Shown piece by piece: positions 34,071-64,000 of a DNA stretch of 64,000 nt. The translations under genes were made by a program, and so were the position numbers. The stretch comes from Candidatus Omnitrophota bacterium (GTDB lineage Bacteria > Omnitrophota > Gorgyraeia > Zapsychrales > Fredricksoniimonadaceae). The first letter of the stretch is position 1. Every line of letters begins with the position of its first letter. Where the stretch lies: NCBI GenBank assembly GCA_015233675.1, contig JADFXH010000002.1, forward strand, positions 14,794 through 78,793, written 5' to 3'. Below the pieces are notes generated by a model. It was not told the DNA's origin. It made no database searches and saw nothing but the letters and a program-made list of their open reading frames with translations.

Positions 34071-34097
34071 ACGAGCAGGAAAGGAAATTGTTGATCA

Positions 34098-36026: not shown

Positions 36027-36054
36027 TTGACATTGTTTTTGTATTTTATATAAT
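36027..36054 (+). promoter_or_regulatory. Candidate promoter of the winged-helix regulator / downstream glycan operon
   Basis: TTGACA-N16-TATAAT, the same 16-nt spacer as the leader promoters. Confidence 0.5.
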
Positions 36055-36072
36055 GTTCATTAATTGAACATT
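36052..36072. promoter_or_regulatory. Inverted repeat AATGTTCA-N5-TGAACATT overlapping the -10/+1 region (candidate operator)
   Basis: Perfect 8-bp arms between the -10 hexamer and ATG 36076 of the regulator gene. Confidence 0.45.
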
Positions 36073-36075
36073 CCT

Positions 36076-36648
36076 ATGAATGCCTCTAAAGACCCCCTTA
36101 ATGAACGCGATTTTGAATTGATCAATATTGTCGGTGGTCAATTAGCCTCTAACCAGCGCGACCTTTCCCGTTATATGAACCTTTCTTTAGGAATGACCAA
36201 TATGCTTTTAAAGCGTTTGGTTACTAAAGGTTATATCCGTATTAAACAGCTTGACCGTCGAAAAGTTGAATATTTCCTGACTCCAAAAGGATTTGCTGAA
36301 AAGATGCGCAAGTCTGTCAAATACACGCTAAAAACCATTAGTTCCATAGGTTTAATTAAAAAACAACTTTTAGATATTCTTGGAAATCTTTATGCAAAAG
36401 GCCATAGGAAATTTTATGTTTTGGGAGATTCGGATTTCGCTCAATTGGTGGAGAGCGCTTTAATACAGTCTCAATGGGGAGGGGTTGAAGTTGGCCGGGT
36501 TAAATCTTTATCGGAAAATCCTGATGGTTTGGTGCTTATTTGCAGGGAAGATGAAAACAGCCCGGAATTAAGCGGGGAGCGTTATGTGGATTTGATTAAA
36601 GAGTTAGCTAGCCGGGAGAATAACGAATTTGAAGCGGTAGAAAGGTAA
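36076..36648 (+). CDS. Winged-helix (MarR-like) transcriptional regulator with an uncharacterised C-terminal domain
   Basis: QRDLSRYMNLSLGMTNMLLKRLVTKGYIRIKQLDRRKVEYFLTPKG is a wHTH pattern. I prefer ATG 36076 to the TTG at 36064. Confidence 0.65.
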   Translation: MNASKDPLNERDFELINIVGGQLASNQRDLSRYMNLSLGMTNMLLKRLVTKGYIRIKQLDRRKVEYFLTPKGFAEKMRKSVKYTLKTISSIGLIKKQLLDILGNLYAKGHRKFYVLGDSDFAQLVESALIQSQWGGVEVGRVKSLSENPDGLVLICREDENSPELSGERYVDLIKELASRENNEFEAVER

Positions 36649-36653
36649 GGAAG

Positions 36654-37655
36654 ATGGGGAAAAATGTTTTAGTAACCGGAGGAGCGGGTTTTATCGCAAG
36701 TCATCTGGTAGACCGCCTTTTAAATGACGGGCACAATGTCACCGTTATTGATAATTTATCTACCGGACGTATGGCTAATGTTGAACACCATAAAGATAAT
36801 TCGCGGTTTAAATTTATCAAAGCGGATATTGCTGATTTTGAGGAAATTCGAAAGTATTTTCAAGATCAGGCAATTGTATTTCATTTGGCGGCATTGGCAG
36901 ACATAGTGCCTTCGATCGTCAATCCCAGGGGATATTATATTTCGAATGTTTTAGGGACAATGAATGTATTGGAAGCCTCGAGATTAAACGGGGTTGGGAA
37001 GTTTATTTATACAGCATCCTCTTCTTGTTACGGCATTCCTCCAAAGGAGTATTATCCCACATCTGAAACAGCTCCCATCAGCACGGAATATCCTTATGCA
37101 TTGACTAAATTTTTAGGTGAAACCACAGCGTTTCATTGGGCTCGTGTCTATCAGCTTCCTGTTGTGTCTTTACGATTATTCAATGTGTACGGCCCGCGCG
37201 CACGTACTTCAGGGACCTATGGCGCAGTGTTCGGTGTTTTTCTAACCCAGAAACTCAATGGAAAGCCGTATACCATAGTCGGTGACGGCGAGCAGACGCG
37301 TGATTTTATTTACGTCAGCGATGTGGCTGAGGCATTTGTCGCCGCCGGATTTTCTGCCGCAGATGGCGAGATTTTTAATGTGGGGACAGGCAAACCTCAG
37401 AGCATTAATAAACTGGTGTCTCTTTTAGAAGGGGAAAAAGTTTATATCCCTAAAAGGCCCGGAGAGCCGGAATGTACTTGGGCAGACATTCGTAAAATTC
37501 AATCCCAGTTGGGCTGGCAGCCGAAGGTTTCATTTGAAGAAGGTGTCAGTAAGATCCTGAAACACATCGATTATTGGCGCGAGGCTCCGGTGTGGACACC
37601 CGAAAGTATAAAAGAAGCGACACAGGATTGGTTTAAATATTTAATAAGGAGTTAA
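36654..37655 (+). CDS. NAD-dependent sugar-nucleotide epimerase/dehydratase (extended SDR)
   Basis: VTGGAGFIASHL Rossmann motif and YALTK (YxxxK) catalytic motif. Confidence 0.8.
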   Translation: MGKNVLVTGGAGFIASHLVDRLLNDGHNVTVIDNLSTGRMANVEHHKDNSRFKFIKADIADFEEIRKYFQDQAIVFHLAALADIVPSIVNPRGYYISNVLGTMNVLEASRLNGVGKFIYTASSSCYGIPPKEYYPTSETAPISTEYPYALTKFLGETTAFHWARVYQLPVVSLRLFNVYGPRARTSGTYGAVFGVFLTQKLNGKPYTIVGDGEQTRDFIYVSDVAEAFVAAGFSAADGEIFNVGTGKPQSINKLVSLLEGEKVYIPKRPGEPECTWADIRKIQSQLGWQPKVSFEEGVSKILKHIDYWREAPVWTPESIKEATQDWFKYLIRS

Positions 37656-37658
37656 AAA

Positions 37659-38684
37659 ATGAATCAGATTAAGACTGTTTTAGTGACCGGCGGCGCTGGT
37701 TATGTGGGGGCTGTGTTAGTTTCCAAACTTTTAAACAAAGGTTACCGTGTGAAAGTGTTGGATCTGTACACTTATGGTGAGGATATTTTTGACGATATCA
37801 AGGACAAGTCTGATTTGGTTGAAATCAAAGGCGATATCTGTGACCAGGCATTGCTGCGTTCTTCGCTGAAAGGATGTGACGCTGTTATTCACTTGGCTTG
37901 TATTTCCAATGATCCGTCTTTTGAATTAAATCCTGCGCTAAGTTTGAAAGTCAATTATGAAGCTTTTGAACCGCTGGTACGCATTAGTAAAGATAGCGGG
38001 GTCAGACGTTTTATATATGCATCAACCTGCAGTGTGTATGGGGTCAGTGATGCTCCCGAAGTTACTGAAGATCACCCTCTGCTGCCCATCACGGATTACA
38101 ACAAATATAAGGGAATGTGTGAACCGGTTTTATCAAAATATCAATCACCGGAATTTACAACGGTCACCATACGCCCGGCTACGGTTTGCGGATACTCTCC
38201 CCGTCAGCGTTTTGATCTGACAGTCAATATCTTGACCAATCATGCCTATCATAACAACCGTATCAAGGTTTTTGGAGGTAAACAAGAGCGTCCCAACATC
38301 CATATCGGGGATATTACTGATTTGTATGTACAGTTATTAGAACTGCCTGATGCCAAAATTGCCGGTAAAATTTATAATGCCGGCTATCAGAATCGGTCAG
38401 TTGCGGATATTGCCTTGATAGTACAGAAAATAATGGCCCGGGAATTTCCGCAACGGCCTCAACCTACTATTGAAACTTTGCCATCAGATGATATACGTTC
38501 TTACAGGATCTCTTCCGAGAAAATTAAAAAAGAGTTGGGCTTTGTTCCCCGCTTTACCATTGAAGATGCGGTACGCGATTTGATCAAGGCATTCCGTGCT
38601 GACAAGTATCAGGATTCACTTAATAATCCCCGTTATTTTAACATCAAAATGCTTAAATCTTTGGAGGCTGGGGTTCATGGATGA
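37659..38684 (+). CDS. NAD-dependent sugar-nucleotide epimerase/dehydratase (extended SDR)
   Basis: VTGGAGYVGAVL and YNKYK motifs. Confidence 0.8.
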   Translation: MNQIKTVLVTGGAGYVGAVLVSKLLNKGYRVKVLDLYTYGEDIFDDIKDKSDLVEIKGDICDQALLRSSLKGCDAVIHLACISNDPSFELNPALSLKVNYEAFEPLVRISKDSGVRRFIYASTCSVYGVSDAPEVTEDHPLLPITDYNKYKGMCEPVLSKYQSPEFTTVTIRPATVCGYSPRQRFDLTVNILTNHAYHNNRIKVFGGKQERPNIHIGDITDLYVQLLELPDAKIAGKIYNAGYQNRSVADIALIVQKIMAREFPQRPQPTIETLPSDDIRSYRISSEKIKKELGFVPRFTIEDAVRDLIKAFRADKYQDSLNNPRYFNIKMLKSLEAGVHG

Positions 38685-40212
38685 TAAGACAATTAAAAAA
38701 ATTTTACCGCTTAAAGAAATAGCCAAACGCATTGAGGATATTAAAAACAAGGGTAAGAAAGTGGTGCAATGCCACGGCGTGTTTGATATTGTCCATTTGG
38801 GGCATATCCGTCATTTTAATATGGCCAAAAAAGAAGGGGATGTTTTGCTCGTGACGCTGACCGCCGACCGTTATGTTAAACGGGGTCCCGGCCGGCCGAT
38901 TTTCAATGAACAATTACGGGCCGAGTATTTGGCTTCTCTTTCAATAGTAGATTATGTTGGGATCGTCAATGCAGAAACTGCCACGGAAAGCCTCAAGATT
39001 TTAAAACCGAATCTTTATGCCAAGGGGTTAGAGTACAAGAATCATAAGCAGGATGTCACCGGGAAGATTTCCGAAGAAGAAGAGGCTATCAAATCGGTGG
39101 GCGGTAAAATTGTTTACACGGATGATATTACTTTCAGTTCTTCAAAAATCATTAATAGTTATCTGGACGTTTTTCCCCAGCGTACGGTGAGGTATCTTCA
39201 GGCCATTGAGAAACGCTATCCGGTTGAAAGCATCGTTGAATCAATTGAAAAGTTAAAGAAGCTTAAAGTGCTCGTGATCGGGGACGCCATTATCGACGAG
39301 TATCATTATTGCGTGCCCATGGGAAAATCTTCCAAGGAACATTTAGTTGTCAACCGCTACACTTCAGAGGAAATGTTTGCCGGAGGGGGTTTAGCTACGG
39401 CCAATAATGTGGCCAGCCTCTGCGGCCAGGTGGACCTGGTGACTGTTTTGGGGCGCCAGGATTCAAAGGAAGATTTTATTCGCAGCCGTTTAGCCCCCAA
39501 TATCAGGCCGCGTTTTTTTTACCGTCCTGATACTAATACGATTATCAAACGCCGCTTTGTTTCCGAGGGCAATAATCGTAAGCTTTTTGAAGTTTGTTTT
39601 ATGCATGATAATGATATTCCCAAAAGGGAAGAATCCCATATTGCCCGTCATTTAGAAAAAGTCCTGGGTAATTATGATTTAGTGGTTGTTTCCGATTTTG
39701 GCCATGGCTTATTGACAAAAAAGCTAATCGATATTATTTGCTCAAAGGCCAAGTACCTGGCTGTCAATGCCCAAACAAACAGCGCTAATATCGGTTTTAA
39801 TATGGTGACCAAATACCCTCGCGCTAACTGTGTTTGTATCGATGAGCTTGAGCTGCGTTTCGCGGCGCATGATAAATTCAGCGATCCCCGCCACCTGGCT
39901 AAAAATGTTTATGAGCAGATCGGATGCGAACATATTATTACTACTAGAGGGGCTCTTGGTTCATTATGTTATTCACGTCAAGATGGATTTCATGAAACAC
40001 CGGCTTTCGCTTATCGCGTGGTGGACGCCATAGGTGCAGGGGACGCATTTTTTGCTTTTGTGGCGCCGTGTTTTGCCGGGGGCATGCCCCAGGAACTGGT
40101 ATCTTTTATAGGTAATGCAGTTGGTTCTTTGGCCGTACAGATTGTTTGTAACCGGGAGCCGGTTAAGAATGTGGATTTAATGAAATTTATAACGAGATTA
40201 TTGAAATATTAG
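38677..40212 (+). CDS. Bifunctional nucleotidyltransferase (RfaE-II/TagD-like, N-terminal) + PfkB sugar kinase (C-terminal); domain order reversed relative to HldE
   Basis: N-terminal HGVFDIVHLGHIRHF (HxGH) cytidylyl/adenylyltransferase motif. C-terminal PfkB signature DAIGAGDAF. ATG 38677 overlaps the upstream stop by 8 nt. Confidence 0.75.
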   Translation: MDDKTIKKILPLKEIAKRIEDIKNKGKKVVQCHGVFDIVHLGHIRHFNMAKKEGDVLLVTLTADRYVKRGPGRPIFNEQLRAEYLASLSIVDYVGIVNAETATESLKILKPNLYAKGLEYKNHKQDVTGKISEEEEAIKSVGGKIVYTDDITFSSSKIINSYLDVFPQRTVRYLQAIEKRYPVESIVESIEKLKKLKVLVIGDAIIDEYHYCVPMGKSSKEHLVVNRYTSEEMFAGGGLATANNVASLCGQVDLVTVLGRQDSKEDFIRSRLAPNIRPRFFYRPDTNTIIKRRFVSEGNNRKLFEVCFMHDNDIPKREESHIARHLEKVLGNYDLVVVSDFGHGLLTKKLIDIICSKAKYLAVNAQTNSANIGFNMVTKYPRANCVCIDELELRFAAHDKFSDPRHLAKNVYEQIGCEHIITTRGALGSLCYSRQDGFHETPAFAYRVVDAIGAGDAFFAFVAPCFAGGMPQELVSFIGNAVGSLAVQIVCNREPVKNVDLMKFITRLLKY

Positions 40213-40251
40213 GGTGTTTGAAGATTCGGACATGTTAAAGCAATAATGGCT

Positions 40252-40276
40252 CCCCCTCTTTCTTATAAAGAGGGGG
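40252..40276 (+). terminator. 10-bp GC-rich hairpin followed by a G-rich tail (no U-tract)
   Basis: CCCCCTCTTT-CTTAT-AAAGAGGGGG, then TTAGGGGGAG. Same style as 4841-4875. Confidence 0.3.
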
Positions 40277-40288
40277 TTAGGGGGAGTT

Positions 40289-40906
40289 GTGGGTATAGTC
40301 GTAGGTGTTGATTTTGACAATACACTGCTTAATTACGATGATGTGTTTTTTCACAGAGCTTTGGATTTAGGCTTGATTAATGATAGTGCGGTTTTACATA
40401 AGAGGCAGTTGAGGGAACGGATAAGACTTTTGCCTGATGGGGAATTATTATGGCAGCAAATACAGGCGTATGTTTATACAAAAGGTATTGTTCAAGCGCA
40501 TTTGATCAACGGGGTTAAAGAATTTTTTATTTCTTGTTGCCGGGAGGATGTTCGAACATTTATTGTAAGCCATAAAACCATGTATGCTCCAGTTGCACCT
40601 AACCAGATTAATTTACGGGAAAGGGCATTGGATTGGATGAAAGCCAATGGCTTCTTTGATCGGATGGGGATGGGGTTAAACATAACCCAAGTTTATTTTG
40701 AATCAACCAGAAAAGAGAAAATTGAAAGGATTAAAGTTCTGGGCTGTACGCATTTTATCGATGACTTACAGGAAGTTTTCCTGGAAGATGAATTTCCATC
40801 GGGAGTGAAGAAAGTGCTTTACTCGCCTGATTTGGAGAAGCCAGTCAGGGGAGATATCGTCGTAGCAGATAGCTGGAGAAAAATTCATGAGTGCGTTTTT
40901 AACTGA
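40289..40906 (+). CDS. HAD-superfamily phosphatase-like protein
   Basis: GTG start. Motif I VGVDFDNTL, plus a downstream FIDD motif. Confidence 0.6.
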   Translation: MGIVVGVDFDNTLLNYDDVFFHRALDLGLINDSAVLHKRQLRERIRLLPDGELLWQQIQAYVYTKGIVQAHLINGVKEFFISCCREDVRTFIVSHKTMYAPVAPNQINLRERALDWMKANGFFDRMGMGLNITQVYFESTRKEKIERIKVLGCTHFIDDLQEVFLEDEFPSGVKKVLYSPDLEKPVRGDIVVADSWRKIHECVFN

Positions 40907-41954
40907 CCTTCAATATACACCGGCAGAGATAGCCAAGATGGCAGGGGAATTAATGGGCCAACCTGTGACATCTGCAGAACCTGTCAGTAAGGGGGCTAAC
41001 AGCAGGGTTTATCGATTAAGGTCTTCTTTAGGGAATTATGTTATGAAATTTTATTTTCAACACCCTAAAGATACCCGGGACCGGCTGGGGACAGAATTTA
41101 GAAGTATGTCTTTTTTATGGGCCCAGGGCATTCGTCAGGTTCCTCAGCCGCTGAATGCCTGGGACAAGCATGCCTGTGCGGTGTACACGCTGGTAGAAGG
41201 TGTTTCTCCTCTAGGGCAAATATTAGACGCCGATTTTGATCAGGCCATTGATTTTTTAAAAATTCTTAAAGGCTTGACTAAATCTATCGCCAGCAAAGAA
41301 TTTGCTCCGGCCTCGGAAGCCTTTTTTTGTGCTAAGGACATCGTCAACAGCTTAAAGGCGCGTTTAAAGCGGTTTAATTTTGATGATACTGCCGATGAAT
41401 ATTTAGCCTTACGGAAATATTTACAGAATGAATTTATCCCTTTATTAGAGGATGTTGAGTTGTGGTCAAAAGAATATTTAGCCGGGCAGGGAGTGTTATG
41501 GGAACAGGAGCTTTTAGATCAATACCGGACACTAAGTCCCGCGGATTTCGGATTTCATAATGCTTTACGCACCCCGGCAGGGAGGATGGTTTTTTTAGAT
41601 TTTGAATATTTTGGTTGGGATGACCCCGTTAAATTGGTTGCGGATTTTGTGTGGCATCCAGCCATGAGCTTAACACAAGCACAGAAAGAAAAATTCATGC
41701 ATCAGATGCAGAGTTTTTTTGATGATGACCCGCAATTCCGGACTAGACTAAAAGCATTCTTCCCGTTGTTTGGTTTGAAATGGTGTTTAATTTTTTTAAA
41801 TGAGTTTGTTGCTGTTGATATGCAGCGCCGGGGTTTCGCCGGAATGGTCGCTCAAGATAAAACGGCAGTTCGTCTAAAGCAGCTAGCCAAGGCCAAGGCC
41901 ATGAGTGATCAGGTTAGATGTTGTTATAAGGAATTCCCATATGGAAAAAAATAA
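40887..41954 (+). CDS. Kinase-like (aminoglycoside/choline kinase, APH-fold) phosphotransferase
   Basis: N-lobe GANSRVYRL...YVMKF. C-lobe PADFGFHNAL...VFLDFEYFGWDDP. Confidence 0.65.
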   Translation: MSAFLTDLQYTPAEIAKMAGELMGQPVTSAEPVSKGANSRVYRLRSSLGNYVMKFYFQHPKDTRDRLGTEFRSMSFLWAQGIRQVPQPLNAWDKHACAVYTLVEGVSPLGQILDADFDQAIDFLKILKGLTKSIASKEFAPASEAFFCAKDIVNSLKARLKRFNFDDTADEYLALRKYLQNEFIPLLEDVELWSKEYLAGQGVLWEQELLDQYRTLSPADFGFHNALRTPAGRMVFLDFEYFGWDDPVKLVADFVWHPAMSLTQAQKEKFMHQMQSFFDDDPQFRTRLKAFFPLFGLKWCLIFLNEFVAVDMQRRGFAGMVAQDKTAVRLKQLAKAKAMSDQVRCCYKEFPYGKK

Positions 41955-42795
41955 GGGCCGACGTATTCTTATTACAGGGGCGGGGGGATTTATTGGCAGT
42001 GCCCTGTTAAAAGAGTTATCCGATTTATCGCCCGTGGCGGTTTATCATAATACCAAGCCTTCAATGGGGTACCATTCATTGAAGTCTGTTGACTTGCGCG
42101 ATGAACAGGCCCTTCGGGTTCTTATGATGGAGCTAAAGCCGGAAATTGTTTATCATTTCGCGGCATTGGCATCTCCTAAACGTAATGAAGAAGACCCTCA
42201 GCTTGCCAGGGAGACACATTTGAAGGTCACAGAGAACTTGGTAAATAATTTGCCGGAAGGCTCGCATATTGTCTTTACTTCGACGGATAAAGTTTTTGAC
42301 GGCTCAGACCCCAATCCGGATGAAAATTCCAAGCCTCATCCAAAGTGGCTTTACGGGCGGCTTAAAGTTGAGTGCGAAAATCTTATACGCAGCCGTGTCC
42401 CAAGGCATCATATCGTGCGATTGCCGATAGTTCATGCGCTTGGTGAAGAATGGGTTTTCAAGACAGGGTCAGCAGGGGGATCATTTATTGATAAGGGCAT
42501 GGCCGATCTGAGACTAGGCAAAAAGGTTGAGGCTTTCAATAATGTCGAGCGCGGGTATGTTCGCATATCACGTTTAGTTGACCTGTTCAAAGTCATGCTT
42601 GAAGATGAACATTATGGCTTGTATCATGTTAGTTCTCCAATGATGAGTTATTACGAACGTATGAAGCAGCTTTGCACACATTGCGGTATTGCCTGGCAGG
42701 ATCTTTTGGTTCCCTCTTTAGGGACAGCGATCCCTATGACACAGAATTTGAATACTGTTAAATTATCATCGACATTTAAGATTGTTTTTGATTAA
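41941..42795 (+). CDS. NAD(P)-dependent sugar reductase/epimerase (RmlD-like SDR)
   Basis: ILITGAGGFIGSAL and YGRLK motifs. I prefer ATG 41941 to the start at 41905. Confidence 0.7.
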   Translation: MEKNKGRRILITGAGGFIGSALLKELSDLSPVAVYHNTKPSMGYHSLKSVDLRDEQALRVLMMELKPEIVYHFAALASPKRNEEDPQLARETHLKVTENLVNNLPEGSHIVFTSTDKVFDGSDPNPDENSKPHPKWLYGRLKVECENLIRSRVPRHHIVRLPIVHALGEEWVFKTGSAGGSFIDKGMADLRLGKKVEAFNNVERGYVRISRLVDLFKVMLEDEHYGLYHVSSPMMSYYERMKQLCTHCGIAWQDLLVPSLGTAIPMTQNLNTVKLSSTFKIVFD

Positions 42796-42816
42796 AAATA
42801 TTTTAAAAGGAGCGTT

Positions 42817-43869: not shown

Positions 43870-43878
43870 AAGGTAATT

Positions 43879-44655: not shown

Positions 44656-44681
44656 TAAATGATTGAAACAATGATGAAAAA

Positions 44682-48515: not shown

Positions 48516-48549
48516 TGGATTTAATCCATAGAAAGGGTCGGGGTCGGGT

Positions 48550-49083: not shown

Positions 49084-49087
49084 TATT

Positions 49088-50670: not shown

Positions 50671-50677
50671 TAGTCAT

Positions 50678-52554: not shown

Positions 52555-52572
52555 TTAGGAAAGGGAGCAAGT

Positions 52573-53952: not shown

Positions 53953-53954
53953 CC

Positions 53955-54824: not shown

Positions 54825-54866
54825 ACATAAAATATTCAAGAATTCTTAATTAGGCAAAGGAGTGAT

Positions 54867-55508: not shown

Positions 55509-55517
55509 GACACCGAA

Positions 55518-56618: not shown

Positions 56619-56639
56619 ATATTAAATATTAGGAGAAAA

Positions 56640-57614
56640 ATGAAAAAAGTCTTGATCACTGGCGCGGGGGGGTTTATAGGGTCTCATCTGGCTGAATATT
56701 GTGTGAGCCGGAAAATCCAGGTGCGGACTTTTGTCCGGTACAATTCTCGTAATTATTGGGGGTGGCTGGAACAAAGTCCCTGCCGTGGGGATATTGAAGT
56801 ATTGACGGGAGACATCCGCGATTATGACTCGGTTTTTAGTGCCATGAAAGGCTGTGACAGCGTTTTTCATTTGGCCGCCCTGATCGGTATTCCCTATTCG
56901 TATGTTTCGCCGTTGGCGTATATAAAAACAAATGTTGAAGGCACCTATAACGTTCTTCAATCATCTAAAGAATTAGGCCTAAAGAATGTGATCGTGACAT
57001 CAACCAGTGAGACATATGGGACCGCCCAGTATGTCCCGATTGACGAAAAACATCCTTTGGTGGGTCAGTCTCCTTATTCGGCCAGTAAGATCGCCGCAGA
57101 CCAGCTGGCGCAAAGTTATTGTCGTTCTTTTGGGCTGCCTGTAAGAATTGTACGTCCTTTTAATACGTATGGCCCGCGGCAATCCGCGCGCGCTGTCATC
57201 CCGACAATTATTTCTCAGATATTAGCCGGTTGCAGGGAATTGAAACTTGGTAATGTTACTCCCACACGGGATTTTAATTATGTCAAAGATACGGTCCGGG
57301 GGTTTTGGGAAATTTCCCAAGCGAAAGAATTTTTGGGGGAGACGGTAAATATTGGGACGGGGACAGAGGTCTCTATTAAAGATTTGGTGGGGAGCATTTC
57401 CAGGCTATTAGGGCAGAAGGTAAAAATTATTCAGGAGCGTCAGCGGATCCGTGGGGCTGAGACAGAAGTTGACAGGCTTTGCTGTGACAACACTAAATTG
57501 ATCCGAGCCACAGGGTGGAGGCCTCAGTATGATTTAGAAAAAGGTCTTCAAGAAACAATACCGTGGATAAAGAAGAATTTAGCGGCATATAAGCCGGATT
57601 TTTATAATGTTTGA
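56640..57614 (+). CDS. legB: NAD-dependent NDP-HexNAc 4,6-dehydratase, LegB-like
   Basis: YNSRNYWGWLEQSP, SETYGTAQYVPIDEKHPL, SPYSASKIAADQL and RPFNTYGPRQSARAVIPT closely parallel my recollection of Campylobacter LegB. Confidence 0.65.
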   Translation: MKKVLITGAGGFIGSHLAEYCVSRKIQVRTFVRYNSRNYWGWLEQSPCRGDIEVLTGDIRDYDSVFSAMKGCDSVFHLAALIGIPYSYVSPLAYIKTNVEGTYNVLQSSKELGLKNVIVTSTSETYGTAQYVPIDEKHPLVGQSPYSASKIAADQLAQSYCRSFGLPVRIVRPFNTYGPRQSARAVIPTIISQILAGCRELKLGNVTPTRDFNYVKDTVRGFWEISQAKEFLGETVNIGTGTEVSIKDLVGSISRLLGQKVKIIQERQRIRGAETEVDRLCCDNTKLIRATGWRPQYDLEKGLQETIPWIKKNLAAYKPDFYNV

Positions 57615-57626
57615 TAAGAGGTCTCC

Positions 57627-58691
57627 ATGAGAAAAGCAGGAAAAGATTTCTTTATTACGAAAAAATTGACAGTAAAAGAAGCTATGCTGCGCATGAGCCA
57701 GATTGCCGAGAAACAGCTTTTTGTCATTGATGAGAAAAAGAAACTCTTCGGAGCTCTTTCCGACGGAGATATCCGTAAATGGATTTTAAAAGGAGGGCAT
57801 TTAAGAGAAAAGGTTGAGCATGTATGCAATCACCAGCCGCGGTTTGTAAAAAAGAATTATGATATAGATTTGGTTCGTAAGTTAATGCTCAAGCTTAAGA
57901 TTACGGCTATTCCGGTTCTTGCAGAAGATAGCTCTGTAGATGAGGTATTGACCTGGGAGCGTGTTTTTGCGGGAGAAGTAAAAAGACATATTAATAAGAT
58001 CAATGTCCCGGTTGTCATTATGGCCGGCGGTAAAGGGACGCGCCTGGATCCTTTTACGCGCATTCTTCCCAAGCCTCTTATTCCTATCGGAGAGAAGCCA
58101 ATCTTGCAAATCATTATGGATAAGTTTGTCGAACAAGGGGGGCGTAAATTCTTTCTCTCGATTAATCATAAGGCCAGGATGGTCAAGTCCTACTTTGAGG
58201 AGTATGGTGCAGGGTATCGCATTTGTTATATTGAAGAAAATAGGCCTTTGGGGACGGTCGGAAGTTTGCGGCTTCTTAAGGGCAGGATCAAGGGAGTATT
58301 TTTAGTTACGAATTGCGATACCATCATTAATATTGATTACAACGAGATCGTCAAATTTCACAAGGACAACGGATATGACATGACCCTTGTTGTTTCATGC
58401 AAACGCTATGTCATTCCCTATGGCGTTTGCGAGGTACATAGCGGAGGGCTTTTGAAGTCTATTAATGAAAAACCAGAGCATGACTATTTGGTCAATACGG
58501 GGATGTATGTGATGAGCTCAAGAATTTTTGATTTTATACCTGTGGGGAAGGTCATGCATATCAACGAGCTGATCGCTAAAATTAAGAATAAGGGTATGAG
58601 TGTCGGGCTTTTTCCCATTGATGAGAAAGCCTGGATCGATATCGGGCAGTGGGATGAGTATCATCGTGCTGTCAGGCAATTGGGTGGATAA
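57627..58691 (+). CDS. CBS-pair + sugar-phosphate nucleotidyltransferase (PtmE-like)
   Basis: N-terminal CBS repeats, then VVIMAGGKGTRLDPFTRILPKPLIPI. Confidence 0.75.
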   Translation: MRKAGKDFFITKKLTVKEAMLRMSQIAEKQLFVIDEKKKLFGALSDGDIRKWILKGGHLREKVEHVCNHQPRFVKKNYDIDLVRKLMLKLKITAIPVLAEDSSVDEVLTWERVFAGEVKRHINKINVPVVIMAGGKGTRLDPFTRILPKPLIPIGEKPILQIIMDKFVEQGGRKFFLSINHKARMVKSYFEEYGAGYRICYIEENRPLGTVGSLRLLKGRIKGVFLVTNCDTIINIDYNEIVKFHKDNGYDMTLVVSCKRYVIPYGVCEVHSGGLLKSINEKPEHDYLVNTGMYVMSSRIFDFIPVGKVMHINELIAKIKNKGMSVGLFPIDEKAWIDIGQWDEYHRAVRQLGG

Positions 58692-59459
58692 ATGAACGAA
58701 TATGGATCTTACATTAAATCTGAAGGCCTAGACCAGCTGATTGATTTTAGAGAAAGCGCTAAATATCTAAAAGGGGGCATTGATACTGTAAGCGGAAAAT
58801 TTAGGACGCCTTTTCCTCCCGAGCCGGAAGATTTGGCGTATTTGCATAAAATCATCAGGCAGAGAAAATGTTTTACGGTTTTAGAATTCGGGATCGGTTA
58901 TTCAACAATCATCATAGCAGATGCCTTAAGAAAGAATAAAAAAGAGTGGGAGGCTCTTGCCCATAAACCAGCGATCAGAAATCGTTTCATGTTTCAAGTT
59001 TTTTCCGTTGACGCTTCTAAGAAATGGATCAAAAGCGTAAAAAAGATAATCCCGAATGATTTTTGTTCTATGGTTCACTTGCAATACAGTCTGGTTGAAA
59101 TAGGGACGTTTAACGGACAACTTTGCCATTTTTATAAGGACCTTCCGGATATTGTCCCGGATTTCATTTATCTTGACGGGCCTTCGCCTAAGGATGTCAA
59201 AGGCAATATTAACGGTCTCAGTTTTCAATGTGATGAACGCACTGTGATGTCGGGAGATCTATTGTTAATGGAACCAACCTTTTTGCCCGGCACTTTTATT
59301 TTAGTTGATGGGCGAACAAATAATACCCGTTTTTTAAAGAATAATTTTAAAAGAAAATATGAAATTAATTGGGACAAGAAGAGAGATGTAACGACTATCG
59401 AATTAACTGAAGATAGGCTTGGGAAATACAACCTCCTCGGGGCTGATTTCTTAAAATGA
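58692..59459 (+). CDS. Hypothetical protein, possible class I methyltransferase fold
   Basis: VLEFGIGYST and DFIYLDG resemble SAM-MTase motifs I and post-II. This is weak evidence. Confidence 0.4.
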   Translation: MNEYGSYIKSEGLDQLIDFRESAKYLKGGIDTVSGKFRTPFPPEPEDLAYLHKIIRQRKCFTVLEFGIGYSTIIIADALRKNKKEWEALAHKPAIRNRFMFQVFSVDASKKWIKSVKKIIPNDFCSMVHLQYSLVEIGTFNGQLCHFYKDLPDIVPDFIYLDGPSPKDVKGNINGLSFQCDERTVMSGDLLLMEPTFLPGTFILVDGRTNNTRFLKNNFKRKYEINWDKKRDVTTIELTEDRLGKYNLLGADFLK

Positions 59460-60451
59460 GCCAGAAATTTGAAAAAAAGAAAAAGCTTAAGGTCCTTGTC
59501 TGCGGATTTGGATCAGTAGGCAGCCGGTATGCCCGTATCCTGCGCAAAGGCTTTGATCTTGATATTGTTTTGTTTCGCCGGAAGCATCGGGGTAACTCCT
59601 TTGGGATACCGGAATTATACCGGTGGGAAGATATTCGACGCTATGCCCCGGACATTGCTTTTATTACTAACCCTACGTATCAGCATATTTCCACTGCCTT
59701 AGCCGCAGTTTCAACGGGCGCTCATATTTTTTTGGAAAAACCGATTTCCCATTCATTAGCTGGAATTCGGCAGCTGGAACAGGAGTGTAAACGGCGCAGG
59801 AAAGTTTGTTATGTCGCCTACACACTGCGGTTTGTACCGATTGTCCAAAAAGCAAAACAAATTTTAGTTGGGCGAAAAATTTTGCACGGCCGGGCGGTTT
59901 GTTCTTCATCCCTTTTAGACTGGCGGCCCGGAAGGCAGGTTAAGGACTGTTACTCTTCTTATCGTGGTCAAGGAGGAGGGGTCATCCTGGAGGTCTCACA
60001 TGAGTTTGACCTTATGGAATATTTAATTGGTAAAGCTGACCAGATCAGTGGTTGGCATGGCAGGCTGGCTGATATCACTGTTGATGCTGAAGATACTGCG
60101 GATGCCATCATGTGGTTTGCCAACGGGGTATGTGCGAATATTCATCTGAATTTTATGAGCCGTAAGCCGGAGAGATTCTTTCATATTGATTTCGAAGGTG
60201 GGTTTTTGCGTGGGGATTTATTGAAGCATACGTTGGTTTTCCATAATAAGGGAATCGAAAAAGTCTATCATATGCCTTGTGAAAAGGACGATTATTTCGG
60301 TAAGCAAGTTAAGTTTTTTTTAAAGCATTTGGATGATCCGGGAATGATGAACAACCTTTCTCAAGCTAAGGGGTTATTTGAGAAAATTATTAATTTCAGG
60401 AGAAAGAAATATGGCAGTATTGCTGACCATCGCCGCTCGGGGCGGATCTAA
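59456..60451 (+). CDS. Gfo/Idh/MocA-family oxidoreductase
   Basis: VLVCGFGSVGSRY Rossmann motif and FLEKP motif. Confidence 0.75.
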   Translation: MSQKFEKKKKLKVLVCGFGSVGSRYARILRKGFDLDIVLFRRKHRGNSFGIPELYRWEDIRRYAPDIAFITNPTYQHISTALAAVSTGAHIFLEKPISHSLAGIRQLEQECKRRRKVCYVAYTLRFVPIVQKAKQILVGRKILHGRAVCSSSLLDWRPGRQVKDCYSSYRGQGGGVILEVSHEFDLMEYLIGKADQISGWHGRLADITVDAEDTADAIMWFANGVCANIHLNFMSRKPERFFHIDFEGGFLRGDLLKHTLVFHNKGIEKVYHMPCEKDDYFGKQVKFFLKHLDDPGMMNNLSQAKGLFEKIINFRRKKYGSIADHRRSGRI

Positions 60452-61121
60452 AGGTGTAAAAAATAAGAATATTCGAGAGCTGTGCGGGAAACCTTTAATT
60501 GCCCATAGTATTGACCAGGCGAAACGGTGGGCAGGGGCAAAGAGGATTGTCTGTTCGACAGATTCCCCCGCTATAGCGGAAGTTGCCAAGGCTTATGGGG
60601 CCCAAGTGCCATTTATGCGTCCGGCAGAATTTGCCACGGATACGGCGGGCAAGATCGATGTTTTGCGTCACGCTTGGCTAGAAAGCGAGCGGGTCTTTGG
60701 GGAGCGCTATGATATGCTGCTTGATTTGGATGCAACCGCGCCAATTCGTAAGATCGAAGATATCGAGGGGGTTTATCAGTTATTCTTAAAGAGTCAGGCG
60801 GACGTGGTGACCACAGGGACCTTGGCCCGCAAAAGCCCGTATTTCAATATGTTAGAGGAAGCTACTGATGGTTATTGCTATCTTAGCAAGAAGCCTCAAC
60901 AACCGATCCTTCGCCGGCAGGATGCTCCCAAGGTTTATGATCTTAACGCTTCAATTTATGTTTATAGGCGTGAATATCTTTTAGATAAGAAAATACGGTC
61001 TTCAACCCAGGGACGTACACTGATCTGGACAATGGATGATACCTCCGCTTTTGATATTGACAGAGAGGTGGATTTTTTATTTGTGGAGTATCTTGTGTCC
61101 AAAGGAGTAATTATTCTATGA
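60411..61121 (+). CDS. Acylneuraminate (nonulosonate) cytidylyltransferase, NeuA/LegF family
   Basis: AARGGSKGVKNKN signature. ATG 60411 has the SD AGGAG, and I prefer it to the TTG at 60378. Confidence 0.8.
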   Translation: MAVLLTIAARGGSKGVKNKNIRELCGKPLIAHSIDQAKRWAGAKRIVCSTDSPAIAEVAKAYGAQVPFMRPAEFATDTAGKIDVLRHAWLESERVFGERYDMLLDLDATAPIRKIEDIEGVYQLFLKSQADVVTTGTLARKSPYFNMLEEATDGYCYLSKKPQQPILRRQDAPKVYDLNASIYVYRREYLLDKKIRSSTQGRTLIWTMDDTSAFDIDREVDFLFVEYLVSKGVIIL

Positions 61122-61909
61122 CAGATTACCTCAGTTTATTCTTGTTGAAGAAAAAAAGAATAGTAGTGACCGGAGGGTGCGGCCTTATTGGCAGGGAAAT
61201 CGTTGCCGCATTGGGGCAGGCCGGAGCCAGTGTGGTAGCCGCAGATGTGGATGAAGTCAAGGGGCGTCTGCTCCAACGGGAATATCCTGCAACAGGCGGG
61301 AGTGTTGTGTTTCGTTGTTTTGATATGACTAGTTTAGAGAAGATGGAACAGAATATTACTGCTCTTGTAAAAGAAGCCGGCGGGTTGGATGTTTGGGTTA
61401 ATGCCGCCTTTCCCAGGACAAAAGATTGGTCAACAAAAGTTGAAGATATAACGGTTGAGTCCTGGAATACAAATGTTGAATGGCAGCTTAATAGTTACGG
61501 TTTAAGTGCAAAATATGCCGCTGAACATATGAAAGAAAAGGGCGGGAGCATTATTCTTTTTGGTTCCATCTATGGTGTCGTCGGAGGGCAATTTGAGATT
61601 TATAACGGTACAGGGATCAACCCCTGTTCGCCGATCTATGCCGCGGTCAAAGGCGGAGTAATTAATTTGGCACGATATTACGGAGCTTATTTTGGCAAAT
61701 ATGGGATTCGCGTTAACGCTCTTTGTCCCGGAGGAGTGTTTGACGGACATCCCCAGGCATTCGCTGAAAGTTACGGCAGACGGACGCCTCTTGGCCGGAT
61801 GGCCAAACCGCAGGAAATGGCAGCCGCAACTTTATTCCTAGCTTCGGATGCTTCATCTTATATGACCGGAGCCGTCATGATGGTGGATGGGGGGTGGACA
61901 GCCATATGA
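61118..61909 (+). CDS. Short-chain dehydrogenase/reductase
   Basis: VTGGCGLIGREI and YAAVK motifs. Confidence 0.8.
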   Translation: MTDYLSLFLLKKKRIVVTGGCGLIGREIVAALGQAGASVVAADVDEVKGRLLQREYPATGGSVVFRCFDMTSLEKMEQNITALVKEAGGLDVWVNAAFPRTKDWSTKVEDITVESWNTNVEWQLNSYGLSAKYAAEHMKEKGGSIILFGSIYGVVGGQFEIYNGTGINPCSPIYAAVKGGVINLARYYGAYFGKYGIRVNALCPGGVFDGHPQAFAESYGRRTPLGRMAKPQEMAAATLFLASDASSYMTGAVMMVDGGWTAI

Positions 61910-62946
61910 ACCAAGAAATTATTATCAATGGACGGCAAATAGGAGATCAACATGAGCCATTTGTCATGGCAGAGGTAGGCATAAACCATGAAGGAAGTTT
62001 TAAGAAAGCTAAACAATTGGTTGATGCGGCTGTTAAAGCAAAAGCGGACTGTGTTAAATTTCAATGCCACATCGTTGAAGAAGAGATGATCCCCACAAAT
62101 ATGAGGCCCGGCAAGATTTCTACAGAACGTTTATGGGATATTATCAAGCGCTGTGAGTTGTCTGAAAAAGAGGAAATTGCGATTAAGGAGTATTGTGAAC
62201 AAAAAGGTATTATTTATTTATCGACTCCTTTTTCTCGTAAAGCGGCGGATCGTCTTAATGGTATGGGTGTTGCTGCTTTTAAGATCGGCTCCGGTGAATG
62301 CAATAATGTTCCTTTGCTCGAACACGTTGCAAGGATGGGCAAGCCGATTATTTTATCGACAGGGATGAATGATATTGCCTCTATCCGTCGATCCATTGCG
62401 GTAATTAAGAAATATAAATGTCCTTTGATGCTCATGCATTGTACCTCCATGTATCCGACCCCTTATGAAAAAGTACGATTAGGAGCGATTGCTCATCTTA
62501 AAAAGACCTTTGAGCTGCCGGTGGGCTTAAGTGATCATTCATTAGGGATCTATACTTGTCTTGGAGCGGTCGCATTGGGGGCTTGTGTTTTGGAAAAACA
62601 TTTTACGATTACCCGTCAATGGCCCGGTCCCGATGTCCCGATTTCCATTGAGCCGGATGAATTGGAAGAAATGGTCAAGGGTGCCCGTGCTATTTTTGCC
62701 GCTCGGGGAGTAGTTAAGGCCATATTACCTGAAGAGCAACCGGTGATCGATTTTGCTTATGCATCGGTTGTATCCATTCGCGCTATCAAGGCCGGAGAAA
62801 TTTTGGATCATGGGAATATTTGGGTTAAACGTCCCGGAACAGGCCCTTTGTTAGCCAAAGATTTTAAGAATATTTTGGGCAAAAAGGCGGCGAGAAAGAT
62901 TGCCGCGGACAAGCAAATAAAGCCCGAGGATATTTTAGGTTTTTAA
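61906..62946 (+). CDS. Nonulosonic acid synthase, NeuB/LegI family
   Basis: FVMAEVGINHEGS...CVKFQ N-terminus and a C-terminal SAF/antifreeze-like domain. ATG 61906 overlaps the upstream stop (ATGA). Confidence 0.85.
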   Translation: MNQEIIINGRQIGDQHEPFVMAEVGINHEGSFKKAKQLVDAAVKAKADCVKFQCHIVEEEMIPTNMRPGKISTERLWDIIKRCELSEKEEIAIKEYCEQKGIIYLSTPFSRKAADRLNGMGVAAFKIGSGECNNVPLLEHVARMGKPIILSTGMNDIASIRRSIAVIKKYKCPLMLMHCTSMYPTPYEKVRLGAIAHLKKTFELPVGLSDHSLGIYTCLGAVALGACVLEKHFTITRQWPGPDVPISIEPDELEEMVKGARAIFAARGVVKAILPEEQPVIDFAYASVVSIRAIKAGEILDHGNIWVKRPGTGPLLAKDFKNILGKKAARKIAADKQIKPEDILGF

Positions 62947-62950
62947 ATAA

Positions 62951-63925
62951 ATGACACCTCACCTTAAAGAGCATAGAGTCATTATTACAGGAGCCTGTGG
63001 GGCCATTGGTTTTGCCTTATCAAAGCGTTTGGCAGAAGCTGGGGCCATGGTCATAGGTTTAGACCGGGCAGGTTCACAAGAGACGTTTGCTGCGGATGTT
63101 AAGGGGTCAAGATTATACATAGGAGATCTTTTAAACATAGCTTTCTTAACGAATGCTTTTCAGGAAGCCAGCAAGTTTGGATCTGTGACGGCGGTATTGC
63201 ATCTGGCCGGACAAAGCGATGCGAATCAGTGTGAAGTTGACCCGCCATTGGCGTATCGGCAGAATGTCATACTCACGGCCAATGTCCTTGAGGCAAGCAT
63301 TAAGCATCGTATCTCCAGATTTATTTTCCCTTCCACAGCGTATGTTTACGGGACGGAATACCAGGAAAAGATCAAAGAAGATTTCCCTGTTCTTCCTTGG
63401 GGAGTGTATTCTCTTACGAAACTATCCTCGGAAACGATCATTAAGAGTTACGTTAATCTTGGGTCTATTAATGCGGATATCCTGAGGATCAGTAATACTT
63501 ATGGCCCTTCATGGAAACGCAACACAATTTTGGGAGACATGATATCCCAGGCAGAGGGCAACAGTAAGATTATTTTACGTAATTTGCGGGTAGTGAGGGA
63601 TTTTATATATATGGACGATGTGATTGAAGCATTTATGCGTTTGATCGTCGCTGAGCGTCCGGGATGCCATACCCTCAATCTTTCGACAGGACAGGGGACT
63701 TCAGCAGGGGAGTTGGCGAGTTTGTTTTGTGATATTTGGGGACTTCCCCAAGAAGCCGTTGAAAGCCCGGCGGATCCTAAAGCAACGGCATCGTGGCTGG
63801 TTTTAGATAATCAAGCTCTTTATGGCCGGCTGGGATGGCGTCCGTCAATCAGCACCCGGGAAGGGTTAAAAAAAATCTTGGCAATATTAAAAGAACAACG
63901 GAAAATATGTCAAAACGAAAAATAG
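62951..63925 (+). CDS. NAD-dependent epimerase/dehydratase (SDR)
   Basis: ITGACGAIGFAL and YSLTK motifs. Confidence 0.75.
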   Translation: MTPHLKEHRVIITGACGAIGFALSKRLAEAGAMVIGLDRAGSQETFAADVKGSRLYIGDLLNIAFLTNAFQEASKFGSVTAVLHLAGQSDANQCEVDPPLAYRQNVILTANVLEASIKHRISRFIFPSTAYVYGTEYQEKIKEDFPVLPWGVYSLTKLSSETIIKSYVNLGSINADILRISNTYGPSWKRNTILGDMISQAEGNSKIILRNLRVVRDFIYMDDVIEAFMRLIVAERPGCHTLNLSTGQGTSAGELASLFCDIWGLPQEAVESPADPKATASWLVLDNQALYGRLGWRPSISTREGLKKILAILKEQRKICQNEK

Positions 63926-64000
63926 CTATCTTTACCGGGAATCGGGCAGAATACGGGTTGCAATATCCGATCATTAAGGCCATCCATAGTCATCCACAGC
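63907..64000 (+). CDS. UDP/GDP-N-acetylhexosamine 2-epimerase (hydrolysing), NeuC/LegG-like, 5' part only
   Basis: MSKRKIAIFTGNRAEYGLQYPIIKAI matches the NeuC-family N-terminus. The gene runs off the window. Confidence 0.65.
   Translation, partial: MSKRKIAIFTGNRAEYGLQYPIIKAIHSHPQ

Follow-up and report, generated by a model that had tools for sequence, protein, structure and literature searches.

The long run of sugar genes in the genome of an uncultured Omnitrophota bacterium raises the question of which glycan precursors it makes, and of whether its parts serve one pathway or several. We analyzed a window of 64,000 nucleotides from Candidatus Omnitrophota bacterium (assembly GCA_015233675.1, contig JADFXH010000002.1, positions 14,794 to 78,793 of the forward strand; all coordinates below are those of the window), in which a preliminary description had seen a multi-pathway glycan biosynthesis locus headed by a winged-helix regulator, a view that our analysis supported. 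Proteins were assigned to families by hidden Markov model (HMM) searches with Pfam and NCBIfam, the scores being set against the cut-offs of the models, and open reading frames (ORFs) of at least 100 aa were scanned throughout the window. The best explanation of the results, to which we give a probability of about 0.6, is a variable surface-glycan locus (for a lipopolysaccharide (LPS) O-antigen, a capsule or a glycoprotein glycan) that covers at least 29346-64000, continues past the window and contains a heptose cassette and a legionaminic-acid-type (Leg) module as proposed below. Judging from the gene content, the sugars that the locus would most likely make for the cell surface are one that resembles sialic acid and at least one unusual branched deoxy-heptose.

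As an object this is ordinary, a hypervariable surface-glycan locus of known kind in an uncultured phylum. What is new at the pathway level is a recurrent, uncharacterised heptose cassette with a pair of thiamine diphosphate (ThDP) proteins resembling pyruvate dehydrogenase E1 (PDH-E1), and its combination here with an iron-sulfur (Fe-S) E1 sugar dehydrase and a carboligase system of the erwiniose/caryophyllose type; a conserved module of promoter, palindrome and MarR-like gene is also new. [quoted passage not shown]

The probable heptose cassette and the candidate carbon-branching enzymes

The cassette set of nucleotidyltransferase, SIS-family isomerase, short-chain dehydrogenases/reductases (SDRs), RmlC-like epimerase, GHMP kinase and PDH-E1 alpha- and beta-like proteins (Table 1) recurs in four loci that were found through the alpha-like protein (about 60% identity): two from metagenomes (L005 and L007), one whose protein is labelled 'archaeon' at NCBI (L014) and one from a Chloroflexi metagenome-assembled genome (MAG; L015). 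The alpha/beta-like pair stood next to heptose genes in 5/5 loci, the window included. Identity between the window and L005 was high for the kinase (88%), the 349-aa SDR (84%), the nucleotidyltransferase (79%) and the SIS protein (69%), and lower for the alpha-like (59%) and beta-like (55%) proteins and the TIGR04372 glycosyltransferase (43%). We found no characterised member of this cassette, which recurs across phyla, in the literature. In L007, L014 and L015 a HAD phosphatase forms one protein with the nucleotidyltransferase, so that the four-step activation of the heptose is complete in these three loci. A sugar C-methyltransferase was present in the cassettes of L005 (between a 343-aa SDR and RmlC), L007 and L015; the window has none and carries the E1 dehydrase instead.

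The heptose module of GmhA, GHMP kinase and nucleotidyltransferase that had been recognised earlier held at the family level. Among solved structures, the 13 nearest to the SIS protein are phosphoheptose isomerases without exception, and the four nearest to the kinase are heptose kinases (118-151 bits), followed by fucokinases at 68 bits. A trio of SDR dehydratase, RmlC-like epimerase and reductase had also been named; its epimerase and a reductase candidate stood, but the supposed dehydratase (49088-50137) did not, as it lacks the acid/base motif. It reads SSSQSMYG where the LegB-like protein of the same locus reads TSTSETYG, without the acidic residue that follows the catalytic Ser/Thr of 4,6-dehydratases, it did not match the gmd model, and it is unlike the GMD-type heptose dehydratases. 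Its best solved relative is 6VO6/6VO8 (122 bits).

The Fe-S E1 3-dehydrase was confirmed, well above its model cut-off (Table 1). It gave 536 bits to the Yersinia E1 (3BCX) vs 203 to ColD, values on which a ColD-type dehydratase such as that of Campylobacter jejuni was rejected. It keeps His220 and Cys193/251/253/261, the four cysteines being taken as the cluster ligands, and E1 cysteines 192, 257 and 298 are replaced. Its gene has the heptose kinase on one side and an SDR on the other, both belonging to the recurrent cassette. No protein of the window reached the threshold for a glucose-1-P cytidylyltransferase (TIGR02623, best 82 < 300) or a CDP-glucose 4,6-dehydratase (TIGR02622, best 102 < 278).

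A separate 3,6-dideoxyhexose pathway, as the preliminary description had it, was thus not retained. Because the E1 dehydrase lies in the cassette, RfbF, RfbG and E3 are missing at threshold from the window, the SDR is of the non-dehydratase type and precedents exist in C. jejuni, the heptose and "3,6-dideoxy" parts are probably one pathway. In C. jejuni, a C4 dehydrogenase and a C3 dehydratase give GDP-3-deoxy-4-keto-heptose in vitro (PMC10680097), and 3,6-dideoxyheptoses occur naturally (PMC10440746). The GDP-heptose pathways of that organism share with the steps predicted for our cassette the activation of GmhA/HddA/HddC type, C4 oxidation, C3 deoxygenation, a cupin epimerase and a C4 reductase (PMC10440746, PMC10680097). 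They differ in that their C3 dehydratase is of the ColD type and ours of the Fe-S E1 type, that our epimerase resembles the dTDP-type RmlC (129 bits) more than it does the heptose epimerases of C. jejuni (62 bits), that ThDP enzymes are added here and that all equivalog cut-offs are missed here.

These ThDP enzymes point to branched-chain sugars, which the preliminary description missed; the comparison with described systems is suggestive in two directions. In avilamycin and paulomycin biosynthesis, the PDH-E1 alpha/beta-like proteins AviB1/AviB2 and Plm8/Plm9 add C2 from pyruvate to C4-keto sugar nucleotides (PMC4802897). Here, as there, a small alpha/beta pair, here a candidate ThDP pair whose alpha protein has the motif GDG-X26-NN, lies in a sugar-nucleotide cluster beside enzymes that form 4-keto groups and epimerise. 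The pair here accompanies heptose genes in environmental bacteria and archaea, whereas theirs accompany dTDP-deoxyhexoses in actinomycetes, and the two are likened by description, not by sequence.

The other direction leads upstream of the regulator. The preliminary description had begun the locus at 36076, and we found that it very probably starts at 29346. Taken together, three things connect this additional stretch with the glycan locus and with the chemistry of E1, namely the carboligase with the contexts of its homologues, the aldolases, and an E1 relic. The best solved relative of the 563-aa carboligase is JanthE (8RPH, 283 bits vs 231 for the best acetolactate synthase), and it scored below every acetolactate synthase cut-off. 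JanthE is a YerE-like enzyme that accepts 4-hydroxy-2-oxovalerate (PMC12188165). Homologues of the carboligase (48-65% identity) occur in three metagenome loci for nucleoside diphosphate (NDP) sugars, L017-L019. In L017 it is preceded by a PDH-E1 alpha/beta-like pair and SDR-like genes and directly followed by the transketolase N- and C-subunit genes (TK-N and TK-C), with RmlC further downstream; in L019 an SDR and RmlC precede it and TK-N and TK-C follow; in L018 it lies beside a GHMP kinase and a DegT protein. The triad of carboligase, TK-N and TK-C is therefore conserved in L017 and L019. Intact split transketolases also come after the APH-like kinase in three other related loci (L009, L010 and L013), as they come after the YerE-like enzyme here and in L017 and L019. 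The E1 relic was matched by tblastn to residues 383-455 of the intact RfbH (46% and 42% identity in two frames, E 7e-12); with an identity of no more than 42-46% to the intact copy at 52573, it did not arise by recent duplication.

The described acyl-branched sugars offer the closest parallels to this block. [quoted passage not shown] In common with the clusters for yersiniose A (YerE/YerF), erwiniose (ErwE/F/I/J) and caryophyllose (MMAR_2331-2333), the window has an E1-type 3-dehydrase, a YerE-like carboligase and NAD(P)H reductases; the aldolase-dehydrogenase pair of BphI/BphJ type recalls erwiniose and the HpcH/HpaI-family aldolase caryophyllose. The likeness of the carboligase to YerE and ErwE runs via JanthE and not via a direct sequence comparison. 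In contrast to these clusters, the window holds no CDP-glucose genes and no E3, and the activation genes linked to it are of the heptose type; a split transketolase follows the carboligase and a second, PDH-E1-like ThDP system is present; and the parts are distributed over three promoters and 25 kb in an uncultured Omnitrophota. Ten SDRs are present, none of them adjacent to the carboligase, which is the position of a YerF/ErwF-type reductase.

Put together, the gene families and their arrangement suggest the following scheme, in which the substrates, the order of the steps, the nucleotide carrier and the pairing of each ThDP enzyme with a sugar are our proposal. Unit 1 (29346-32035) would provide hydroxylated 2-keto acids from acetyl-CoA or acetaldehyde and pyruvate, through the ErwJ/ErwI-like pair and the HpaI-type aldolase, and unit 2 (32379-35851) the YerE/JanthE-like carboligase and the split transketolase. 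Unit 3 (36076 onward) would comprise the MarR-like regulator and then a conserved core, the mobile heptose cassette and a CMP-nonulosonate module for a legionaminic-acid-type sugar. In the heptose branch, sedoheptulose-7-P would be isomerised by the GmhA-like enzyme, phosphorylated by the HddA-like kinase and activated with a nucleotide by the HddC-like enzyme. The non-dehydratase-type SDR would then oxidise C4, the Fe-S E1 dehydrase would remove the oxygen at C3 and the RmlC-like protein would epimerise the product. Branching would take place at the C4 ketone, where the PDH-E1-like pair may add C2 from pyruvate and the YerE-like enzyme a longer hydroxyacyl group, before reduction by SDRs and transfer by the TIGR04372 glycosyltransferase.

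Alternative pathways

Two other readings of the same genes have to be considered. The one put forward in the preliminary description, that a legionaminic-type pathway, a 6-deoxyheptose pathway of the Campylobacter/Yersinia type and a classical 3,6-dideoxyhexose pathway, all known, lie side by side and work independently, agrees with the presence of all the named families and with the closeness of the E1 dehydrase to the Yersinia enzyme for 3,6-dideoxyhexoses; HMM searches indeed kept every named module in its family, without reassignment to unrelated families. We consider it improbable, given that it lacks RfbF, RfbG and E3 in the window, that its dehydrase is embedded in a recurrent heptose cassette, that its supposed dehydratase SDR has no dehydratase motif, no gmd match and no likeness to the GMD type, and that it leaves three ThDP systems without a role. 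According to the other reading, the E1 dehydrase and the ThDP carboligases build an erwiniose/yersiniose-like branched 3,6-dideoxyhexose from CDP-glucose made elsewhere in the genome, and the heptose cassette is separate and yields an unbranched sugar. Every characterised acyl-branched sugar uses CDP-4-keto-3,6-dideoxyglucose, the E1 dehydrase scores 536 bits to a CDP-hexose enzyme, and the E1 relic lies beside the ErwJ/ErwI-like genes and away from the heptose genes, all of which would fit. The constant linkage of the alpha/beta-like pair to heptose genes, the position of the intact E1 gene between the heptose kinase and a cassette SDR, and the lack of a cytidylyltransferase or CDP-glucose dehydratase within 64 kb argue otherwise, and we regard this reading as unlikely, if a little easier to defend.

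The reading that we prefer, with the branched heptose and the legionaminic-type module in one surface-glycan locus, has its own difficulties. The equivalog cut-offs of the heptose enzymes were missed (GmhA 81 < 209, HddA 149 < 600, HddC 96 < 300), and because most proteins of the module score below such NCBIfam cut-offs, its substrates are not secured. GmhB is absent from the cassette here, the only candidates in the window being the 205-aa DFDNT protein (40289) and an unrelated HAD_2 protein (16268), and no E3 partner of the ferredoxin-NAD(P) reductase type was among the scanned ORFs. The role of the 349-aa SDR leans on 6VO6, which we take to be Cj1427, a non-dehydrating GDP-heptose C4 dehydrogenase. 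The nearest relative of the E1 dehydrase works on a CDP-hexose, the YerE-like homologues in L017-L019 have no DmpFG-like genes beside them, and units 1 and 2 lie 18 kb from the E1 gene, behind separate promoters. For the nonulosonate, the window contains neither a LegC aminotransferase, its only DegT-family gene being the E1 dehydrase (LegC model 165 < 420), nor LegH, in that no ORF of the hexapeptide/PglD-like type was found; both may lie beyond 64000. The acyl-branched sugars described so far all have a 3,6-dideoxyhexose, and not a heptose, as their backbone (PMC9306805).

With these points in mind, we put forward only tentatively that the locus, like the cassettes from Chloroflexi, a putative archaeon and further uncultured lineages, represents an undescribed class of higher-carbon branched sugars, 3-deoxy (or 3,6-dideoxy) heptoses with a C4 acetyl or hydroxyethyl branch introduced by the PDH-E1-like pair and here possibly also a longer hydroxyacyl branch from the YerE-like carboligase, supplied by its own aldolases, and that the set LegB-NeuB-SDR-NeuC without LegC and LegH may give a 7-hydroxy, 9-deoxy sialic-acid-like sugar. 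The enzymology of the cassette would widen the known routes to branched sugars, and would supply carboligases that take ketone acceptors, which are wanted in biocatalysis (PMC9306805, PMC12188165).

The nonulosonate module, the conserved core and the layout of the gene chain

The legionaminic-type nonulosonate module noted earlier matches the Campylobacter and Plesiomonas clusters in content at the family level, but its 'NeuC-like' gene is present as a 31-residue N-terminus only. The only solved relatives of this fragment are LegG structures (5XVS/5ZLR, E 6e-4), and it is 87% identical to the start of an Epimerase_2 gene in the related locus L012. An exact 53-mer from the end of the window was absent from the JGI metagenomes. 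The legionaminic region of Plesiomonas shigelloides consists of PtmA (254 aa), LegF, PtmF (326 aa), PtmE (352 aa), LegH, LegI, LegG and LegC (PMC4481668). Counterparts of PtmE, PtmF, LegF, PtmA and LegI, and candidates for LegB and the LegG start, are shared between the window and the clusters of C. jejuni, P. shigelloides and Vibrio fischeri (PMC4481668), with sizes close to those of Plesiomonas (354 vs 352 aa for PtmE, 331 vs 326 for PtmF and 263 vs 254 for PtmA). Unlike these clusters, neither the window nor L012 has LegC and LegH, the window has two additional genes, for a rare SDR between NeuB and NeuC and for a 255-aa protein, and its LegB and NeuB fall just under the curated cut-offs. 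A search of 5.8 billion sequences gave 34 relatives of the rare SDR (62951) at E <= 1e-30, and its relatives among the GTDB representatives are only 23-26% identical; the arrangement NeuB-SDR-NeuC was found in L012 and L013. L012 encodes LegB-like, NeuB, SDR, NeuC, PtmE-like, LegF-like and PtmF-like proteins and no DegT-type aminotransferase, and because this related cassette also lacks one, a variant nonulosonate product is possible. A single-sequence AlphaFold model of the 255-aa protein was unusable (predicted local distance difference test, pLDDT, 35).

Between the regulator and the cassette lies a core (36654-44655) that is conserved in L009 and L010, the two loci identified by an HldE-like protein of 88% identity. 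Both have the order MarR-like, SDR, SDR, PDH-E1 alpha/beta-like pair, HldE-like, followed by APH-family kinase, TK-N and TK-C; of the two, only L009 had a detectable HAD-like protein. The MarR-like orthologues that head both loci are 58% identical. L009 also shares the left flank, with a methylenetetrahydrofolate reductase (MTHFR) gene on the minus strand and a methyltransferase-GT2 fusion that is 79% identical. The shared gene order and left flank indicate that the locus occupies a conserved place in the chromosome, with a 5' core that is kept and modules that can be exchanged, and a conserved 5' core with an exchangeable remainder is the usual pattern of O-antigen and capsule loci. In the HldE-like protein a cytidylyl/adenylyltransferase domain comes first and a PfkB kinase second, the reverse of the order in E. 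coli HldE. The protein is 70-90% identical in >100 proteins, and those with a source name are Omnitrophota MAG proteins; this unusual conservation suggests a phylum-wide core function. The product of the core may be an ADP-heptose-type precursor. A GT9 (heptosyltransferase-family) gene directly follows the HldE-like gene in L010 and L011, and the position of the APH-like kinase after the HldE-like and HAD-like genes is conserved in L009, L010 and L013. The 205-aa HAD-like protein gave a single-sequence AlphaFold model of pLDDT 37, also unusable.

Large unidirectional O-antigen and capsule loci led by a dedicated regulator are known, for example the Leptospira rfb and Bacteroides capsule loci. 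The present locus resembles them in its tens of co-oriented, tightly spaced sugar genes, its conserved site, its conserved 5' part and its exchanged remainder. It differs in that the leading gene is MarR-like with a conserved palindrome overlapping the promoter, and in that no flippase, polymerase or exporter is in view.

The earlier count of about 30 head-to-tail genes from the regulator onward was accurate, with 29 intact genes on the plus strand from 36076 (ATG) to 63925, according to the ORF list and start refinement, and a 30th, starting at 63907, of which the window holds only the first 31 codons. Gaps at the junctions have a median of 2 nt, and 13/29 junctions overlap (8 of them by 4 nt, of the ATGA type), against a median gap of 98 nt for 16 junctions of housekeeping genes at 25-20115 of the same window. 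Because nearly the entire 64-kb window is on the plus strand (58 of ~60 genes, the minus strand being used only at 20210-21106 and 26578-27141), co-orientation is not significant by itself, and the evidence for an operon is the tight spacing, not the shared strand. No convincing terminator had been noted before, and we also found terminator-like hairpins at or below the expectation from shuffles (20 vs 20.3 and 13 vs 18.2) and none in the plus-strand intergenic gaps of the cluster. At least nine SDR enzymes had been claimed and ten were counted, eight extended and two classical. The two glycosyltransferase candidates reported previously (44697-45893, TIGR04372, and 55518-56618, GT2) are the only ones within the cluster coordinates, and family searches likewise bore out the absence of a Wzx, Wzy or ABC exporter from the whole window; MurJ at 1859-3238 is the lipid II flippase. 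The chain consists of intact genes except for 693 bp of non-coding DNA (54825-55517) occupied by a transketolase relic with a frameshift and a large internal deletion. Two small ORFs at 54867 and 55170 were rejected as genes, both being pieces of this relic.

Whether the 28 kb form one transcript is a separate matter. The appearance of a single strand could reflect a genome-wide bias, and the chain could consist of several co-oriented operons with internal promoters, for example after the 76-nt gap 40213-40288 or in the pseudogene stretch. This is a serious possibility to which we would give somewhat less than even odds. It would accord with the strand usage of the window and with the different histories of the modules (81-91% identity of the core to L009/L010, 79-88% of the cassette to L005), and L012 has the same promoter and palindrome directly ahead of the nonulosonate cassette. 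The predicted single operon is favored by the tight spacing, the overlaps and the lack of a detected terminator, by the occurrence of just three perfect promoters in the window, none of them within 36100-64000, and by promoter-like matches inside the chain that stay at shuffle level. The mosaic could also be a chimera of different organisms created by metagenome assembly or binning, since the similarity of the heptose cassette to the unrelated contig L005 far exceeds that of the neighbouring modules to any other sequence. This is highly improbable, and we dropped it: across the joins, GC content (0.41-0.46) stays even and so does the positive GC skew, the joins are gene overlaps, such as the ATGA at 45890 between glycosyltransferase and nucleotidyltransferase, an adjacency also seen in L005, and the left flank is syntenic with L009.

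Table 1. Features of the extended glycan locus and its regulatory elements (window coordinates; scores in bits against model cut-offs unless stated otherwise; PMP, pyridoxamine phosphate).
Feature	Coordinates	Strand	Evidence or remarks
Repeat copy 1	28590-28802	+	promoter 28591-28618 and ~180 nt conserved non-coding leader, ahead of aldolase operon
E1/RfbH-type 3-dehydrase relic	29085-29316	+	C-terminal ~75 residues, frameshifted, directly upstream of acetaldehyde dehydrogenase gene
Acetylating acetaldehyde dehydrogenase (DmpF/BphJ/ErwJ-like)	29346-30227	+	TIGR03215 386, cut-off 282
4-Hydroxy-2-oxovalerate (pyruvate) aldolase (DmpG/BphI/ErwI-like)	30233-31264	+	TIGR03217 392, cut-off 286
HpcH/HpaI-family class II pyruvate aldolase	31283-32035	+	PF03328 96.5
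Repeat copy 2	32099-32328	+	promoter 32100-32127 and leader, ahead of ThDP gene
YerE/JanthE-like ThDP carboligase, 563 aa	32379-34070	+	acetolactate-synthase fold, GDG-X26-NN at residue 448
Split transketolase	34098-35851	+	TK-N 34098-34919, TK-C 34919-35851
Sigma-70 promoter and palindrome	36027-36071	+	promoter 36027-36054; ATGTTCA-N5-TGAACAT at 36053-36071
MarR-like winged-helix regulator	36076-36648	+	HTH_27 24.6 > 22.2; first gene of chain
Two extended SDRs, epimerase/reductase type	36654-37655, 37659-38684	+	81-91% identical in related Omnitrophota loci
HldE-like bifunctional enzyme, 511 aa	38677-40212	+	HldE model 168 < 521
205-aa protein, HAD-like DFDNT motif only (possible phosphatase)	40289-40906	+	no HMM match
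APH-family (sugar/small-molecule) kinase-like protein	40887-41954	+	family match
RmlD-like reductase	41941-42795	+	family match
Zn-dependent alcohol dehydrogenase	42817-43869	+	also in L010, L011, L013
Classical SDR	43879-44655	+	pair with alcohol dehydrogenase also in L010, L011
TIGR04372-family glycosyltransferase	44697-45893	+	236, cut-off 45; adjoins heptose nucleotidyltransferase here and in L005
Sugar-1-P nucleotidyltransferase, 244 aa	45890-46624	+	best model HddC (heptose-1-P guanylyltransferase), 96 < 300
PDH-E1 alpha-like ThDP protein	46621-47550	+	PF00676 79.7; GDG-X26-NN at residue 143
PDH-E1 beta-like protein	47547-48515	+	NF006667 52 < 321; Transket_pyr E 0.0014, too divergent for Pfam
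GmhA-like sedoheptulose-7-P isomerase (SIS)	48550-49083	+	TIGR00441 81 < 209
Extended SDR, 349 aa, candidate NDP-heptose C4 dehydrogenase	49088-50137	+	non-dehydratase motif
RmlC-type 3,5-epimerase	50134-50670	+	TIGR01221 145 < 156
Extended SDR, candidate 4-keto or side-chain reductase	50678-51571	+	family match
HddA-like GHMP heptose kinase	51568-52554	+	NF049969 149 < 600
E1-type (RfbH/DdhC) PMP/[2Fe-2S] sugar 3-dehydrase	52573-53952	+	NF011936 690, cut-off 423
Extended SDR	53955-54824	+	orthologue precedes PDH-E1 alpha-like gene in L005-L008
Pseudogene, split transketolase relic	54867-55508	+	N-subunit residues ~7-120, frameshifted, fused to last ~60 C-subunit residues
GT2-family glycosyltransferase	55518-56618	+	family match
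LegB-like NAD-dependent 4,6-dehydratase	56640-57614	+	TIGR04180 470.2 full-length, cut-off 475; TSE motif
PtmE-like CBS-domain sugar-1-P nucleotidyltransferase	57627-58691	+	CBS and NTP_transferase
255-aa protein, faint class I methyltransferase resemblance	58692-59459	+	Methyltransf_24 E 0.02
PtmF-like Gfo/Idh/MocA oxidoreductase	59456-60451	+	family match
LegF/NeuA-like CMP-nonulosonate synthetase	60411-61121	+	CTP_transf_3 72.5 > 22.6
PtmA-like classical SDR	61118-61909	+	NF050062 PtmA 128 < 350
LegI/NeuB-family nonulosonate synthase	61906-62946	+	TIGR03569 386.8, cut-off 399.65; Pfam NeuB 272 and SAF
Rare GalE-like SDR	62951-63925	+	between NeuB and NeuC here, in L012 and in L013
LegG/NeuC-type hydrolysing 2-epimerase, start	63907-64000	+	first 31 codons

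Promoters and chromosomal surroundings

The window contains exactly three perfect sigma-70 promoters (TTGACA-N16-TATAAT) vs 0.01 expected, all on the plus strand and all in large intergenic regions, ahead of 29346, 32379 and 36076. These strong promoters define at least three predicted transcription units in the extended locus. The first two belong to a 213-nt direct repeat, made up of the promoter and a leader of ~180 nt, whose copies are 83.6% identical (28590-28802 vs 32099-32310); at the end of copy 2 is a GC-rich hairpin of 9 bp, followed by a T-rich tail (32307-32328), that resembles a terminator. The leader folds more stably than shuffled sequences (z = -3.2), and compensatory changes were seen in 2/39 pairs, which is weak evidence as there are two copies only. 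No Rfam match was obtained for it, either at the gathering threshold over the whole window or at E <= 1 over 27100-36200, and a tRNA scan found nothing. The repeat is possibly a shared attenuator or riboswitch-like leader. A thiamine pyrophosphate (TPP) riboswitch ahead of the ThDP genes was dropped for want of an Rfam match, and a 24-codon ORF within the leader was rejected, copy 2 having a stop at codon 3 and an indel.

The third promoter carries a palindrome that overlaps its -10 box and predicted transcription start. Promoter and palindrome arms are invariant, with a variable spacer, in L009 (5377-5395), L010 (3719-3737) and L012 (1244-1262), ahead of MarR-like genes in the first two and of the nonulosonate cassette in L012. 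The palindrome is probably the operator of the MarR-like protein, overlapping that protein's own promoter. No MarR-like gene was called between palindrome and nonulosonate cassette in L012, which therefore suggests a small regulon. The regulator scored 45.9 < 88 against TIGR04176 (MarR-family, EPS-associated), short of the equivalog cut-off. An RNA hairpin was dropped as an explanation of the palindrome, the predicted start lying inside it so that only one arm would be transcribed. The module of promoter, palindrome and MarR-like gene offers a simple handle on surface-glycan control in Omnitrophota.

Upstream in the window, LptE, a lipid A acyltransferase and Lnt would fit a diderm cell that bears LPS. 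The gene between SecA and Lnt (10849-13185) encodes a protein of 778 aa that matched no family and has a single hydrophobic segment, at its N-terminus. Between GAPDH and MTHFR, near the methyltransferase-GT2 fusion (21266-22666, AglJ-like, 82 bits), lies the gene of a 484-aa protein (18661-20115) that has ~10 hydrophobic segments and matched neither Pfam nor NCBIfam; its possible functions in the glycan system are those of a polymerase, a ligase or a lipid-linked glycosyltransferase. The region between the fusion gene and the glycan locus (22685-28523) encodes a seven-transmembrane (7TM)-GAF histidine kinase and four receiver-domain proteins and has a cupin gene on the minus strand. In L009, one 388-aa gene is the only one between the orthologue of the fusion gene and the MarR-like gene.

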